Positions 28,483 through 35,865 of a DNA stretch of 52,258 nucleotides are shown in pieces; within the stretch, counting starts at the first letter, position 1, and the number at the start of each line of letters is the position of its first letter. The stretch comes from a virus (lineage: Duplodnaviria; Heunggongvirae; Uroviricota; Caudoviricetes): IMG/VR virus record IMGVR_UViG_2721755660_000011; one strand, 5' to 3'. Position numbers and translations under genes: made by a program. Below the pieces are notes generated by a model. It searched no databases, was not told where the DNA came from, and saw only the letters and a list, made by a program, of their open reading frames with translations.

Positions 28483-28830
28483 TTATATGCGGATTCCAGC
28501 GCGTTCCGTTCGTTTCGGGTGCTTCCAGTTGATGCCCTCAAGAAGCATGGACAACTGAGCCGGAGTAAGGTGAACCTTTCCATCGCGGGTGACCGGCCAG
28601 ACGAAGCGGCCCCGCTCCAGGCGTTTGGTGAAGAGGCACAGTCCGTCGCTGTCAGCCCACAACACTTTTATCTGGTCACCCCGGCGTCCGCGGAAGATGA
28701 ACAGATGCCCGGAGAACGGGTCATCCTTCAGGACGTTCTGAACTTTTGATGCCAGGCCGTTAAAACCATTTCGCATGTCGGTGATACCGGCAACCAGCCA
28801 GATACGTGAACCGGCAGGGAGAGATATCAT
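28483..28830 (-). CDS. IS66-family accessory protein TnpB
   Basis: 115 aa, MISLPAGSRIWLVAGITDMRNGFNGL... typical IS66 orfB product. Confidence 0.85.
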   Translation of the reverse strand: MISLPAGSRIWLVAGITDMRNGFNGLASKVQNVLKDDPFSGHLFIFRGRRGDQIKVLWADSDGLCLFTKRLERGRFVWPVTRDGKVHLTPAQLSMLLEGINWKHPKRTERAGIRI

Positions 28831-29480
28831 CAGTGGCTGCTCCCTTTCATTTCGCGGATAAGTGTCTGTAATAACGCCGGTGTCAGTTCACCTTTCAGCC
28901 TGAGAGTTCCGGCCGGCAGAACCAGCTCGCAGCACAGACTGTCTGGCAGTGTATTTATCTGTTCAGGTATCTGCACTGGTGCCGGGATTTTATTATCCGG
29001 CTCCGGAGTTAACGTCACGGGAAGTAGCGATGTTTCATGTTCGCCGGGCGGCTGCAGGCCGCCGTTACGCCAGAGATGCCGCCAGTTAAAGAGCAGGTTA
29101 TCGTTGATTCCGTTCTCACGAGCTATTTGTGCGACACAGGCACCGGGTAAAAGAGTCCGCTGAACAAGTCTCCATTTAAACTCCGGTGAAAATCGGTTCC
29201 GGCGGGGTTTCTCTGCTTTCACAGGCTGAGTCACGGTCGGGGTTGAAGGATATCGCCCCGGGAAAAGAGCCCGGGCCAGTTGCCCGCAGGAATATTCACC
29301 GGAAAGGGGCCAGTCAGTGAATACCTGGTGAAATCGCCTCACCAGAGAAAAAATGGCGGTTTTGCTGACACCAGTCTGCGCAGAAATGCGCGGGTACGAC
29401 AGTGACTCGTCAAATCTCAGCTGTAGCACACGCAGGATCAATTCCGGATTATCTGCCAATACCGCCTTTCGTGCATTCAT
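28830..29480 (-). CDS. IS66-family accessory protein TnpA
   Basis: 216 aa, HTH-containing IS66 orfA-like protein; start-overlaps tnpB stop. Confidence 0.75.
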   Translation of the reverse strand: MNARKAVLADNPELILRVLQLRFDESLSYPRISAQTGVSKTAIFSLVRRFHQVFTDWPLSGEYSCGQLARALFPGRYPSTPTVTQPVKAEKPRRNRFSPEFKWRLVQRTLLPGACVAQIARENGINDNLLFNWRHLWRNGGLQPPGEHETSLLPVTLTPEPDNKIPAPVQIPEQINTLPDSLCCELVLPAGTLRLKGELTPALLQTLIREMKGSSH

Positions 29481-31898: not shown

Positions 31899-32114
31899 TT
31901 ACTCTCCCCGTGCAGCCTTACGCTTGTCTTCTCTGATTTTGAAGTACAGATTTGTCAGATAAGTCAGGAAGCCCAGAACCAGACTCCCCAGTACACCAAT
32001 CGCAGCCCACTGTGACGGACTGACCTGATCAAGCCACTGTAAAAACCAGTAGCCAGCACTGCCTGCGGAGGTGCCGTAGGCAATGCCCGTTGAAATTTTG
32101 TCCATGGATTTCAT
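31899..32114 (-). CDS. S: Holin (phage 21 S / DLP12 EssD-like) with dual-start motif
   Basis: [71 protein letters not shown] matches phage 21 S holin; Met1/Met4 dual start typical of antiholin/holin. The longer ORF to 32192 probably overcalls the start. Confidence 0.85.
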
Positions 32115-32225
32115 AACCCCCACCTCGCAGATGCGGGCGTTGTGTAATGGAAACAAAAAAGGCCACCAGCGGCCCGTAAAAACAACACCCAATCAAAGGC
32201 ACCCGCAGATGCCTTTTGCGTGGTG

Positions 32226-32378
32226 TTATTCAGATTTGCGCAGTAAAGGCCGGAGCACGACCAGCACCATCACCACCAGCACACCATCTGCCAGTACCGA
32301 CATCAGCCGTCCGGTAAAATCCACCACCACTACCAGAAACAGCAGGATGGCAGCCAGCACAAGGCGCGCACTTTTCAC
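32226..32378 (-). CDS. Putative small hydrophobic membrane peptide (50 aa, GTG start)
   Basis: Hand translation on minus strand: VKSARLVLAAILLFLVVVVDFTGRLMSVLADGVLVVMVLVVLRPLLRKSE; GTG start overlaps the stop of the upstream 141 aa ORF in a GTGA arrangement. Not in the ORF track (under 60 aa). Confidence 0.3.
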   Translation of the reverse strand: MKSARLVLAAILLFLVVVVDFTGRLMSVLADGVLVVMVLVVLRPLLRKSE

Positions 32379-32800
32379 AGGTACTGCTCCAGTGGTAGCT
32401 GCAGCGCCTGAGCAATTTTCTTCAGTTGCGCTTCTTCATCCGGGCCAATGCCGTCCTGGTCAGCGATATCCAGACACAGGCACAGCACATTAACTGCGTC
32501 ATCAGTACCGGCAACATCAGCCAGCTGACGAAGGGCTTCAGCATTGGCAGAGCGCGGCGACGCTTCATAACGGGCGCGGATATTTGCACTCATTTGTGCA
32601 ATCTCACCGGAGAACGGCGCAAAGGCAGGAAGTGCTGCAATGGTTTTCTCCAGTACCGCGATTTCTTTCGCGTCACAGGTGTCGTCAGCGTATGCAATGG
32701 AATACGCACCCCAGACGGTCGCCTCCACTGCGTCGCGGTTCTCCATCTTCTTCACTTCGGTAATGGCCTTGCGAGTTTTCTTTTTGAAAATACCAAACAT
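32375..32800 (-). CDS. Hypothetical acidic alpha-helical protein (cargo at stx-equivalent position)
   Basis: 141 aa ORF downstream of the phage tRNA cluster and upstream of the holin; composition Ala/Glu/Asp-rich; possible TerB-like fold is a guess only. Confidence 0.5.
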   Translation of the reverse strand: MFGIFKKKTRKAITEVKKMENRDAVEATVWGAYSIAYADDTCDAKEIAVLEKTIAALPAFAPFSGEIAQMSANIRARYEASPRSANAEALRQLADVAGTDDAVNVLCLCLDIADQDGIGPDEEAQLKKIAQALQLPLEQYL

Positions 32801-32974
32801 CGTGACTTTTCCTTTTAGTGGGTGAGCCTGCGCCCGGGGGTGACCAGCCCACAGAGAAAGTCACACTGACCATCCCGTAAGCTCACCCCTGAAAGGCTCT
32901 GTGGTTTTTGATATGCGCCGGGCGTGGCGCGGATACAAAAAAGGCCCGCCAAAGCGAGCCGGGAAAAATAAGTC

Positions 32975-33051
32975 TGGCGCGTTGTACTGGATTCGAACCA
33001 GTGACCGATTGCTTAGAAGGCAATTGCTCTGTCCGACTGAGCTAACAACGC
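32975..33051 (-). tRNA. tRNA-Arg (anticodon UCU), phage-encoded (argO/argN-like)
   Basis: Reverse complement GCGTTGTTAGCTCAGTCGGACAGAGCAATTGCCTTCTAAGCAATCGGTCACTGGTTCGAATCCAGTACAACGCGCCA folds as canonical cloverleaf; anticodon loop CTTCTAA. Confidence 0.8.
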
Positions 33052-33064
33052 ATGATGCAGATAA

Positions 33065-33145
33065 TGGACCGCCATCGAGGACTCGAACCCCGCACCAACA
33101 ACCCTGTTATCGTGTCGTCTGCTCTTCCTGATGAGCTAATGGCGG
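33065..33145 (-). tRNA. tRNA-like gene with noncanonical anticodon arm (possible argN-like or pseudo-tRNA)
   Basis: Reverse complement has a good acceptor stem (CCGCCAT / ATGGCGG), D-arm (GCTC...GAGC), T-arm (CGGGG TTCGAGT CCTCG) and CCA, but I could not fold a standard 5 bp / 7 nt anticodon arm by hand; 81 nt. Confidence 0.4.
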
Positions 33146-33152
33146 TATGTTA

Positions 33153-33228
33153 TGGTGGCCCTTGCTGGATTTGAACCAGCGACCTGGCGATTATGAGTCG
33201 CTCGCTCTCACCACTGAGCTAAAGGGCC
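33153..33228 (-). tRNA. tRNA-Ile2-like (anticodon CAU), phage-encoded (ileZ-like)
   Basis: Reverse complement GGCCCTTTAGCTCAGTGGTGAGAGCGAGCGACTCATAATCGCCAGGTCGCTGGTTCAAATCCAGCAAGGGCCACCA closely resembles E. coli ileX-type tRNA; anticodon loop CTCATAA. Confidence 0.8.
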
Positions 33229-33268: not shown

Positions 33269-34327
33269 TCATCCGTTCTGACTGACTAAATCCTGAACTT
33301 CCTTGACCGTCTGCTCAAAACGCTCAGTCTCCAGCTCAACGCCAATTGCACGACGTCCCAGCGCCATCGCTGCTTTGACCGTCGAACCCGACCCCATGAA
33401 AAAATCTGCAACCAGATCTCCCGGACGACTGCTTGCGCTGATTATCTGCTGCAACATTTCTGCCGGTTTTTCGCACGGATGTTTCCCGGGATAGTACTGC
33501 ACCGGTTTATGCATCCACACATCGGTGTACGGCACCTGCACAGTCACACCGAAATACCGCCGCAAATTTTTATATTCTCTCAGCAGTTCCGTATACTGCC
33601 GGTTCAGTTCACTGTATGTGCTGACCAGCTGGTGGTGTGGCTGCTCCAGTTCACCGCGCTGATGTTTTTCTGCTGCAACACGCGCAAACAACGCCTGCAA
33701 TTTGTTGTAATCAGCTTCGTTCGGTAACTGCCACTGACTGGTACCAAACCAGTGCGAAGCCATGTTTTTCTTTCCGGTGGCTTCCGCTATCTGTTTTGAC
33801 GTTATTCCCAGTTCGGCACGAGCATCCCTGAAATACGATATCAGCGGTGCCATTATGTGCTGTTTGAGTTCCCTTTCTTTTGCCGCATAGCCGTCACTTT
33901 TGCCGCGATATGGCCCCTGGTAATGTTCAGCAAACAGAACGCGCTCTGTGGCAGGAAAATATGCGCGCAGACTTTCTTTATTACACCCATTCCAACGTCC
34001 AGACGGCTTCGCCCAGATGATATGGTTAAGCACGTTGAAACGTTCACGCATCATGATCTCAATATCAGATGCCAGGCGATGCCCACAGAACAGGTAAAGG
34101 CTTCCGGCAGGTTTCAACACCCGCCAGAACTGGGCCAGACAGTGGTCCAGCCACTTAAGATAATCTTCGTCCCCTTTCCACTGATTGTCCCAACCGTTGG
34201 GTTTCACCTTGAAGTAAGGCGGATCGGTAACAATCAGGTCAATGGAATCATCAGGCAGGGACTGAATAAAATGCAGGCAATCAGCGTTGATTAAATCAAC
34301 ACTGTTTATTTTTACAGTATTTTTCAT
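33269..34327 (-). CDS. DNA methyltransferase (amino-MTase, likely N6-adenine or N4-cytosine), apparently orphan
   Basis: 352 aa; motif IV DPPY near N-terminus (LIVTDPPYF) and motif I FxGxG near C-terminus (DFFMGSGSTVKAA); no adjacent restriction endonuclease ORF. Confidence 0.8.
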   Translation of the reverse strand: MKNTVKINSVDLINADCLHFIQSLPDDSIDLIVTDPPYFKVKPNGWDNQWKGDEDYLKWLDHCLAQFWRVLKPAGSLYLFCGHRLASDIEIMMRERFNVLNHIIWAKPSGRWNGCNKESLRAYFPATERVLFAEHYQGPYRGKSDGYAAKERELKQHIMAPLISYFRDARAELGITSKQIAEATGKKNMASHWFGTSQWQLPNEADYNKLQALFARVAAEKHQRGELEQPHHQLVSTYSELNRQYTELLREYKNLRRYFGVTVQVPYTDVWMHKPVQYYPGKHPCEKPAEMLQQIISASSRPGDLVADFFMGSGSTVKAAMALGRRAIGVELETERFEQTVKEVQDLVSQNG

Positions 34328-34801: not shown

Positions 34802-34820
34802 CAAAAAAACCGCTCAGCGG
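34802..34820 (-). terminator. Candidate tR'-like terminator (short GC hairpin followed by T-run on minus strand)
   Basis: Minus-strand sequence CCGCTGAGCGG followed by seven to eight T; located between Q region and the late genes, as tR' is in lambda. Stem is only 4 bp, so weak. Confidence 0.35.
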
Positions 34821-34950
34821 CGGGTTTAAGTTGTGTGGCGAAGTAACCACTCTTAACAGCATATTTGATTTTTTACGATTGTAAACGGTTGATTATTCAT
34901 CTCCAATAAAAATAATTGTGTAGGTATGCCCTTAACAATGGATAAGAAAC

Positions 34951-35397
34951 ATGAATAAAATGACTGTATTATTACTTAGCGCAACTATCATTTCAGGTTG
35001 TACTTCTTCCGTACCATTGATAAAGAAAACTCAATCAGGAAAACCTGAGGGGGTTTATCAAAATACGACAAAAGATAAAGTCAAAGATGCCCTTGTGAAT
35101 TACTGCAATAGTAGAGGGTTGATAATTTACAACGCGGATAACAGCAGTGTTATATGTGGTAAAGAACTGGAAGGCGGGTCTGCTGTTTTTGGACAAATGT
35201 TAATCGGCAATGCCTATTCAACAACCCCGGTATCAAAAGTCAGATTTACTATCGCTCAAGTTAATAACGATACAAAAGTGTGGGCCGATATGTGGATGGA
35301 AACTCAAATGGCAATGGGGCAAGTACAACAAATGGCTATAACAGACAACGCAAGCAAAAACACTATCCAACAACGTCTTGATGAATTAAAACCTTAA
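34951..35397 (+). CDS. Lipoprotein (moron), opposite strand to flanking phage genes
   Basis: 148 aa; signal peptide with lipobox IISGC (MNKMTVLLLSATIISGCTSS); AT-rich flanks; sits between Q and the late operon on the opposite strand. Confidence 0.6.
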   Translation: MNKMTVLLLSATIISGCTSSVPLIKKTQSGKPEGVYQNTTKDKVKDALVNYCNSRGLIIYNADNSSVICGKELEGGSAVFGQMLIGNAYSTTPVSKVRFTIAQVNNDTKVWADMWMETQMAMGQVQQMAITDNASKNTIQQRLDELKP

Positions 35398-35482: not shown

Positions 35483-35848
35483 CTAACGATCCATCTCTAG
35501 CTCAATTTCTAACATCATTAACATGCCATCAACTACACCTTCAGCCTTTTGCAATAAACGCCCAACCCAGCAATCAGAACGCCCATGTTTACGGGCAAGC
35601 GCCATAAACGTCATACCACCTACATAATAATCCACTAATAAATCGTGCAAATCGCTGTTGTTCTTTTTCAGGCGAGCCATGCACCCACAAATGATCATCG
35701 CGTCATCGTCACAACATTGCGGGCGGGATTTTACTTTTGAAGGGATTAGTCCTTTAAATCCTGCAGCAATAGACGACCAGGTGACATCCTCGTGATTATT
35801 TGCCACCCATGCCCCCCAACGTTCAAGAACCATTTGAATATCACGCAT
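35483..35848 (-). CDS. Q: Late gene antiterminator Q (QuuD-like)
   Basis: [74 protein letters not shown] matches my recollection of DLP12 QuuD; start placed at internal Met of ORF 35483..35863. Confidence 0.8.
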
Positions 35849-35865
35849 CAACTTTCTCCACAAAA

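Follow-up and report, generated by a model that had tools for sequence, protein, structure and literature searches.

A putative pseudoknotted leader RNA precedes the TerB-family gene pair tciA–tciB at the late cargo site of an enterobacterial prophage

Introduction

Which genes fill the slot in which Shiga toxin-encoding (Stx) phages carry stx, and how might they be expressed there, in the Caudoviricetes sequence IMGVR_UViG_2721755660_000011 (52,258 nucleotides (nt), the whole of which we call the window)? An initial annotation, made from the DNA sequence alone, had placed an unknown two-gene cargo at positions 32226..32800, namely an acidic helical protein and a translationally coupled hydrophobic peptide with a possible toxin/antitoxin-like, lysis-modulating or host-affecting role. 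We identify the two genes as tciA and tciB. The gene pair alone is ordinary, the widespread and already catalogued TciA/TciB module; the novel part is a structured leader just outside the flagged coordinates, 5' of tciA, which is absent from Rfam and from the searched literature. We consider it probable that an accessory module common among phages, composed of the structured leader, tciA, and tciB, is present in full in the window at the lambdoid Q/pR' cargo site, with Q-dependent lytic transcription and leader-gated, coupled translation. The pair and all other relevant genes are on the minus strand of the window, to which all coordinates below refer unless marked (+).

Results and discussion

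Identity and conservation of the tciA–tciB pair

The pair consists of tciA (32800..32375, ATG start, 141 amino acids (aa), TerB family) and tciB (32378..32226, GTG start, 50 aa, DUF3927) and is a real two-gene unit with exactly the extent that was initially annotated. Comparison of both products to profile hidden Markov models gave matches above the curated Pfam cut-offs, for TciA to TerB (PF05099; 29 bits, cut-off 24.4; a partial match of residues 11–57 on profile positions 60–106 of 118) and for TciB to DUF3927 (PF13064; 49 bits, cut-off 25). TciA also matched PHROG 632 ('tellurite resistance') over its full length (5e-64) and TciB matched PHROG 1470 ('TciB-like inhibition of cell division or resistance to colicin'; 2e-23), and NCBIfam gave zero matches for either protein. 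The window tciA is 80% identical to phage P1 tciA at the nucleotide level (DNA search) and 85% at the amino acid level over 141 residues. The chromosome of Escherichia coli GB089 is 100% identical to the window across this region, and RefSeq labels the identical proteins encoded there as 'tellurite resistance TerB family protein' and 'DUF3927 family protein'. With Pfam and PHROG families, P1 homologues and an existing RefSeq annotation, the cargo is not unknown, as had been supposed; sequence comparison identifies it as a prophage copy of phage P1 tciA/tciB, already known by name. The tci genes were named in P1 in 2004 and are represented in Pfam and PHROGs, and related DNA is found in about one in six complete E. 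coli genomes (924 of 5426), on chromosomes and P1-like plasmids. TciA homologues at 72–97% identity occur across Enterobacterales.

TciA contains 26 Ala, 11 Glu, and 11 Asp among its 141 residues and has an isoelectric point (pI) of 4.7. Its AlphaFold2 model (predicted local distance difference test score (pLDDT) 87.5) is an acidic, all-helical, six-helix fold with a disordered basic N-terminus (MFGIFKKKTRK). Composition, pI and model bear out the acidic, Ala/Glu/Asp-rich helical protein described initially. The closest fold matches of the model are the TerB-like structures 2H5N and 2OU3, and the model has the all-helical TerB-like three-dimensional fold, while PDB sequence searches with TciA, as a single sequence and as a profile, returned chance matches only. 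The ratio of nonsynonymous to synonymous substitution rates (dN/dS) of tciA is 0.03–0.08 as calculated by the Nei–Gojobori method, with dS saturated and dN at about 0.09. TciA is thus predicted to be a soluble acidic protein with a TerB-like fold that is under very strong purifying selection.

The tciA stop and the tciB GTG overlap as GTGA (32378..32375), and a Shine-Dalgarno (SD)-like GGAG is located 8 nt 5' of the GTG within the end of tciA. The loci compared were taken from genomes of named species and phages as well as from viral contigs and metagenomes, and 212 of the 228 with complete tciA keep a coupled open reading frame (ORF) of 49–60 aa with the motif VDF[TS]..(M/L)S.LADG; the remainder can mostly be put down to contig truncation, a single frameshifted allele, and a single rearrangement. 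Both lambdoid clades have GTGA at the junction, P1-type loci and some others have TGATG or TAATG, and the tciB ATG of Erwinia jumbo phages is located 3 nt after the TAA stop of tciA. The motif, as VDF(T/A)SRI(L/M)S..ADG, persists beside TciA homologues of 43% (L011, in the same clade as TciA of phage Evi) and 38% (L293) identity. The tciB dN/dS is 0.2–0.6, and 0.23–0.31 in the most divergent comparisons (Nei–Gojobori); such weaker constraint would be consistent with a small membrane protein in which aliphatic residues interchange freely. This conservation argues that the small ORF is a genuine coding gene whose start overlaps the tciA stop. The GTGA coupling proposed in the initial annotation is thereby confirmed and, with the small ORF conserved and the large protein no housekeeping enzyme, its description of a coupled pair holds on both counts.

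Variants of the pair include a rearrangement in L072 (4423..5421) that fuses tciB, after 16 codons, to a 333 aa downstream ORF, a P1-type TciA–TciB fusion protein of 196 aa (P0172), and frameshifted tciB in L153 and L208. On the GC-rich bacterial contig JAESGJ010000051.1 (L293, ~1500..2200), a TerB-like gene that is 38% identical to Erwinia-phage TciA is followed after 11 nt by a 78 aa ORF with the TciB motif (LVDFASRILSMAADG); the leader is absent there. Because this bacterial contig holds both a TerB-like gene and a TciB-motif ORF, the TciA–TciB pairing appears to be older than enterobacterial phages.

A structured leader upstream of tciA

The ~105 nt directly 5' of the tciA start are almost invariant between loci, though the flanks further upstream differ. 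In the window, this leader spans 32801..32907 and is the single hit of the leader covariance model (135 bits). It is carried by 252 loci with 57 unique sequences and is recognisable before both tciA clades, which are only 43% identical, as well as in the Erwinia jumbo phages Asesino and pEa_SNUABM_6. It is absent from P1, L008, and the distant environmental homologues. A search of the 4227 families of Rfam 15 gave gathering-score hits to tRNAs only and, for the 201 nt surrounding the leader, nothing relevant at E-values of 10 or less; literature searches found no paper with the leader sequence, nothing on a leader of a moron, and, for the downstream gene tciB, no functional study of DUF3927.

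The model comprises three helices and a pyrimidine-rich anti-SD. The 5' strand of P1 lies directly 5' of the anti-SD and its 3' strand lies in the apical loop (32904..32897 with 32856..32849; CCACAGAG pairs with CUCUGUGG), for which reason P1 is a pseudoknot. P2 joins 32888..32879 to 32829..32820 (GGGUGAGCUU pairs with AGGCUCACCC), and P3 joins 32876..32868 to 32845..32837 (GGGAUGGUC pairs with GGUCACCCC). Complementarity further exists between the anti-SD CCUUU (32896..32892) and the SD AAAGG (32815..32811), and between GUGACUUU in the apical loop and AAAGUCAC, which is flanked by the SD and the AUG. An additional short hairpin, P4 (GGTC/GACT), was considered and dropped, as the longer P3 explains the covariation better. 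The G-run in the 5' strand of P2 (about 32885..32889) ranges from 4 to 11 G between loci and the C-run in the 3' strand of P3 varies as well (L096, L140, L016), which could reflect a slippage-prone tract or sequencing error.

All three helices show compensatory changes between lineages, from A-U to G-C, C-G to U-A, and G-C to A-U in P1 and from U-A to A-U and U-G to C-G in P2, while G-C, A-U, and G-U interchange at several positions of P3. In a MAFFT alignment of 44 sequences, 89.9% of cells were paired as compared to 43–49% in slid controls, and 11 pairs were changed on both sides, which was reached by none of 500 shuffles. Covariance-model realignments (A4, A5) misplaced the Erwinia rows, and a hand-curated alignment of 15 lineage types was therefore used, in which 94.5% of cells were paired (40–49% in slid controls) and 18 of 40 pairs were changed on both sides. 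An independent check on a different subfamily was provided by an ungapped, uncurated alignment of 29 leaders that do not precede tciA. Pairing was 92% as compared to 32–51% in slid controls, five of the six P1 pseudoknot pairs were changed on both sides, and one P3 pair occurred as CG (n = 10), GC (n = 10), and UA (n = 5). Of 155 unique leaders, 150 contain in their own apical region a perfect complement, at least 5 nt long, to the 8 nt that precede the anti-SD, and the complement averages 6.1 nt within the own leader versus 3.6 nt across classes. The pseudoknot pairings in this wider set are GAAAG/CUUUC, GAGAG/CUCUC, CGAGAG/CUCUCG, CGAUA/UAUCG, CCGUAGAG/CUCUACGG, CCACAA/UUGUGG, and CAGAGA/UCUCUG. 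G-U pairs arise only if the sense strand is read and would be A-C mismatches on the other strand, which is indicative of RNA rather than DNA.

The anti-SD:SD pairing is present in 98.7–100% of cells and varies only by U-G wobbles, and this helix therefore rests on complementarity. Several observations speak against the model. In the wider family, both the anti-SD:SD helix and P2 are invariant and thus beyond covariation testing. RNAalifold did not recover the model from the MAFFT alignment and picked an invariant alternative (GAGCC:GGCUC), the minimum free energy structure of the single window leader is a different fold (z = -1.9), and the hand-curated alignment (A6) was N-padded and fitted by hand to the model and is hence biased. 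Other leader types fold singly into anti-SD:SD, P2, and P3. Taken together, the leader is predicted to form three helices with support from covariation, one of them a pseudoknot, and in addition an invariant anti-SD:SD helix that would sequester the SD.

Leaders of the same type upstream of unrelated genes

The covariance model revealed two further leader copies that are not located before tciA, one 5' of a KilAC antirepressor gene and one 5' of a gene for a 246 aa protein. A degenerate pattern for this non-tciA variant recovered at least 120 viral contigs. Among the matches listed, 96 unique leaders stand before many unrelated accessory genes, which encode a 485 aa glycosyltransferase 'moron' (PHROG 1579), J-like tail-fibre-fragment proteins, and several uncharacterised families; also among the listed matches, a T-run is present at most 110 nt upstream in 92 of 118 wider-family leaders and a hairpin-like GCRC..GYGC element at most 45 nt upstream in 100 of 118. 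Whichever gene follows, the leader keeps a constant position with respect to its SD and start codon.

As the downstream genes are unrelated, a TerB-specific metabolite riboswitch (compare the Mn2+ riboswitch before TerC genes) is unlikely and was dropped. Alternatively, the conserved sequence could act as DNA and not as a functional RNA, either as a boundary or 'linker' that recombination between mosaic phages preserves or as a site bound by a protein. This would account for its position exactly at module junctions, for the joining of the same type to tciA of two clades only 43% identical and to many unrelated genes, and for the invariance of P2, the anti-SD, and the joining regions. We nevertheless consider this explanation improbable, given the compensatory changes on both sides of P1, P2, and P3 across independent lineages, the frequent G-U pairs, and the fixed spacing to the SD and start codon of the next gene. 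The sequence patterns are best read as a translational gate that cargo genes of late operons have in common, or else as an element that affects processing or stability. On balance, and by a modest preference, we favour that the leader represents an undescribed family of pseudoknotted SD-sequestering RNAs and is part of a portable 5' cassette (terminator, GC hairpin, leader, and ribosome-binding site) that stands before dozens of unrelated cargo genes, both in temperate phages of enterobacteria and in Erwinia jumbo phages. If true, a whole set of accessory genes would be under one shared post-transcriptional switch, which would explain the silencing or timing of genes inserted into late operons, provide a sequence signature for finding prophage cargo genes, and add a phage-specific RNA class to the catalogue.

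Genomic location and expression context

In the direction of transcription, the locus begins with the Q antiterminator gene (35863..35483), followed by an opposite-strand ORF of 148 aa (34951..35397 (+)), a pR'-like promoter and terminator (about 34885..34809), a DNA methyltransferase gene (34327..33269), and an array of tRNA(CAT), a degenerate tRNA, and tRNA-Arg(TCT) (32975..33228) directly upstream of the leader–tciA–tciB cassette. Downstream of tciB follow a structured spacer of 111 nt (32225..32115), a P21-type class II holin gene (32114..31899; Pfam PF04971, 120 bits), and genes for DUF1327/YdfR, lysozyme, and Rz/Rz1. The pair thus occupies the Q/pR' cargo ('moron') site, where Stx phages carry stx; this insertion site was described by Tree et al. 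2014 (PMC4104026), and Sp5 carries stx2 there. Phage JLK-2012 has the order Q, three tRNAs, tciA, tciB, and yjhS/nanS-p. The stx-equivalent slot between phage tRNAs and holin that was recognised in the initial annotation is therefore correct on the evidence of the window gene order, JLK-2012, and the published site.

The tciAB genes adjoin tRNA genes in three unrelated kinds of phages and in most viral contigs, and their linkage to tRNA genes is more constant than that to lysis genes. The adjacent tRNAs are Arg, Gly, and Val in lambdoid prophages, Asn/Thr upstream and Ile2 downstream in P1, and Cys in Erwinia jumbo phages (L001, L093, L095, L098). RefSeq labels the interval 33065..33145 between tRNA(CAT) and tRNA-Arg(TCT) as 'tRNA-OTHER'; as neither ARAGORN nor the Rfam tRNA model calls a tRNA there, it is probably a degenerate phage tRNA. 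The 148 aa ORF between Q and the pR'-like element encodes a lipoprotein-like signal (…LSATIISGC), is without a Pfam match, and looks like another inserted cargo gene. An IS66-family insertion element (TnpA/TnpB/TnpC in the GB089 annotation) is present at 28830..29480 and downstream, between Rz/Rz1 and the terminase region. With its late operon interrupted by this element, the prophage may be defective.

Upstream, the cassette is bounded by a terminator-like hairpin (GGCTCGCTTTGGCGGGCC) with a T-run (32937..32960, stem 32960..32943) just after tRNA-Arg, and equivalent hairpins with different stem sequences are located 5' of the leader in nearly all lambdoid loci. Between terminator and leader lies a small G+C hairpin (GCGCC-ACGCCC-GGCGC; 32915..32930) that is conserved 5' of tciA leaders. 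At the downstream end, the tciB–holin spacer (32115..32225) folds into a long hairpin followed by a terminator (fold energy -49.7 kcal/mol, z = -3.9). A terminator scan placed this intrinsic terminator at 32175..32160 (stem) with a U-run to about 32154, and a convergent hairpin is encoded at 32204..32220 (+). The same spacer segment precedes the holins of phiP27 and of an LT-IIb phage, both without tciAB. By its position, the spacer is a candidate small-RNA (sRNA) locus of the PasA/PasC or anti-sRNA type. PasA/PasC are reported to be encoded directly beside the holin/lysozyme operon with a TerB gene as conserved neighbour (Pearl Mizrahi 2021; Zhu 2026 preprint), and the anti-sRNAs AgvB/AsxR are encoded at this prophage site (Tree 2014, PMC4104026).

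In the interval from 32943 to 32800, a simple scan for the sigma-70 consensus gave no promoter-like site, and a promoter between terminator and leader was dropped as a candidate, there being no conserved -10/-35. The unit is a terminator-bracketed insert in a Q-dependent late transcript. We infer that it is transcribed mainly by Q-modified, terminator-resistant polymerase; together with the placement of the P1 homologues in the C1-repressed ban operon, this would mean expression in lytic growth. In P1vir, tciA was reported to be over-induced and tciB/C to be under-induced in an hfq mutant (bioRxiv 10.64898/2025.12.28.696737), a pattern that hints at post-transcriptional uncoupling within the operon.

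Putative function of the module

In the probable account of a leader-gated module, Q-dependent read-through would yield a tciAB transcript on which the leader would hide the tciA ribosome-binding site until a trigger opens it; temperature, a trans-acting RNA or protein, and processing of the tRNA-containing transcript are candidate triggers. Translation of tciA would then deliver ribosomes to tciB and, because the tciB start overlaps the tciA stop, both proteins would be made together. By analogy to Ter proteins, TciB may anchor or partner TciA at the cytoplasmic face of the inner membrane, and TciA–TciB could be a pared-down counterpart of the Ter stress system, in which TerB is combined with a membrane partner. 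TciB has a grand average of hydropathy of +1.54 and a pI of 10.8 and is basic at both termini, with hydrophobic stretches at residues 6–19 and 25–42 that are split by D20-F-T-G-R24. Its most conserved part is a polar central motif, not generic hydrophobicity, which suggests a specific protein contact. The two membrane helices named in the initial annotation would correspond to these two hydrophobic stretches and remain a prediction, for which a hairpin topology is plausible from hydropathy and charge distribution (positive-inside rule).

We tentatively propose, at low confidence and by analogy, that a TciB-anchored TciA complex safeguards the infected cell's membrane or ion balance, for example against pore-forming colicins, superinfecting phages, or premature depolarisation, or excludes competitors, and is neither a toxin nor lysis machinery. 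Such a protective role would be consistent with the plaque-dispensable P1 genes, with lytic-phase expression as it is inferred for three kinds of phages, and with the published suggestion that phages use their TerB genes to compete with superinfecting phages (Iyer et al. 2021). CRISPR interference (CRISPRi) knock-down of P1 tciA/B/C leaves plaques intact, and the genes were scored as non-essential (PMC10695390). Weighing against our account, the AlphaFold2 model of TciB computed with 24 homologues is one continuous helix (residues 2–47, pLDDT 92) and not a hairpin, and Erwinia phages have not retained the acidic residues of the TciB motif. TerC, TerD, TerE, and TerZ are missing from the module, so that Ter-like phenotypes are not simply transferable, and the tellurite, colicin, and cell-division names of the tci genes are by homology only. 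The consensus scan could also miss a weak or activator-dependent promoter.

The pair is directly upstream of the holin gene in many lambdoid loci including the window, and TciB is a membrane peptide, as would be expected for a lysis-timing accessory, that is, an antiholin-like or holin-modulating factor acting on the adjacent P21-type holin. The lysis-modulating role considered initially nevertheless fits poorly and seems improbable, since a strong terminator and the structured spacer separate the pair from the holin gene in the window, the pair occurs with different holin types or with intervening genes, the P1 and Erwinia jumbo phage pairs adjoin tRNAs and not lysis genes, and TciB matches only DUF3927 and no holin family.

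The similarly suggested toxin/antitoxin-like role would cast hydrophobic TciB as a membrane-damaging toxin that is neutralised by acidic TciA. TciB is indeed small, very hydrophobic, basic at both ends, and always co-translated with TciA. We regard this role as very doubtful, given that PADLOC had zero matches for TciA or TciB, that the unit, placed between terminators inside a late operon, shows neither its own sigma-70-like promoter nor an autoregulatory layout, and that P1 plaque formation was unaffected by the CRISPRi knock-down. Moreover, TciB conservation peaks in the polar central motif, as would be expected for a specific protein contact, and TciA evolves far slower than TciB, the opposite of a typical antitoxin.

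A role in tellurite or metal resistance, conferred on the lysogen by expression from its prophage (lysogenic conversion), would agree with Pfam TerB membership and the 'tellurite resistance' labels in PHROGs and RefSeq, but is highly improbable in view of the missing promoter-like site, the upstream terminator, the predicted sequestration of the ribosome-binding site, the absence of terC, terD, and terE, and a P1 name that is explicitly 'by homology'.

TciA/TciB is of value as the smallest natural TerB system, one TerB-fold protein plus a 50 aa membrane peptide, in tractable phages, and could make the long-open role of TerB directly testable.

Comparison with known systems

Phage P1 encodes the overlapping trio tciA-tciB-tciC beside tRNA genes and downstream of the ban promoters, which are under C1 control (NC_005856 gp074-076; annotation by Lobocka et al. 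2004), with 'tellurite/colicin/cell-division' names given by homology only (NC_005856). The window pair resembles that of P1 in the same length and 85% identity of TciA, the same Pfam and PHROG family and central motif of TciB, the overlapping coupled starts, and the adjacent tRNA genes. It differs in the junction (TGATG in P1, GTGA in the window), in the 5' region, which is unrelated in P1 and has no leader match, and in its location in a Q-dependent late operon, whereas the P1 genes are part of the C1-repressed ban operon. P1 also has tciC, which the window lacks. No minus-strand ORF of at least 30 aa was found in the 111 nt tciB–holin spacer except for an in-frame upstream extension of the holin ORF, and tciC appears specific to P1-type elements.

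In the Ter system, the soluble TerB domain works with the membrane partner TerC. The ter operon requires terC, terD, and terE alongside terB for resistance, and its phenotypes are resistance to pore-forming colicins and phages. TciA is like TerB of terZABCDE (PF05099; 2H5N, 2OU3) in its Pfam match above the cut-off and in its predicted all-helical, acidic fold, and is unlike it in the low, partial Pfam score (29 bits) and in having no sequence-level PDB relative. Unlike in the Ter system, the partner of TciA is a 50 aa peptide and not a multi-pass protein. None of terC, terD, terE, or terZ is located beside the window pair, whose neighbours are tRNAs, methyltransferase, holin, and lysis genes, and no Ter-family genes were found in the flanks of related loci.

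Stx1, Stx2, and other Q/pR' cargo share the slot of tciAB, which follows Q, pR', and phage tRNAs and precedes nanS-p and/or holin, with the cargo gene flanked by terminators and sRNA-like elements. In contrast to Stx, the tciAB products have no similarity to any toxin and are an intracellular protein and a membrane peptide without a secretion signal. By position, the tciB–holin spacer is like the prophage sRNAs AgvB/AsxR and PasA/PasC, as it is highly structured and terminator-ended and has a convergent hairpin on the other strand.

The predicted leader is like fourU and ROSE thermometers, pseudoknotted riboswitch platforms, and Mu com/mom in that a pyrimidine anti-SD is placed against AAAGG. 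As in other SD-sequestering leaders, its stems covary, its joining regions are invariant, and a pseudoknot joins the 5' flank to the apical loop. It differs from these in being without an Rfam match and, unlike a metabolite riboswitch dedicated to one pathway, in preceding many unrelated genes.

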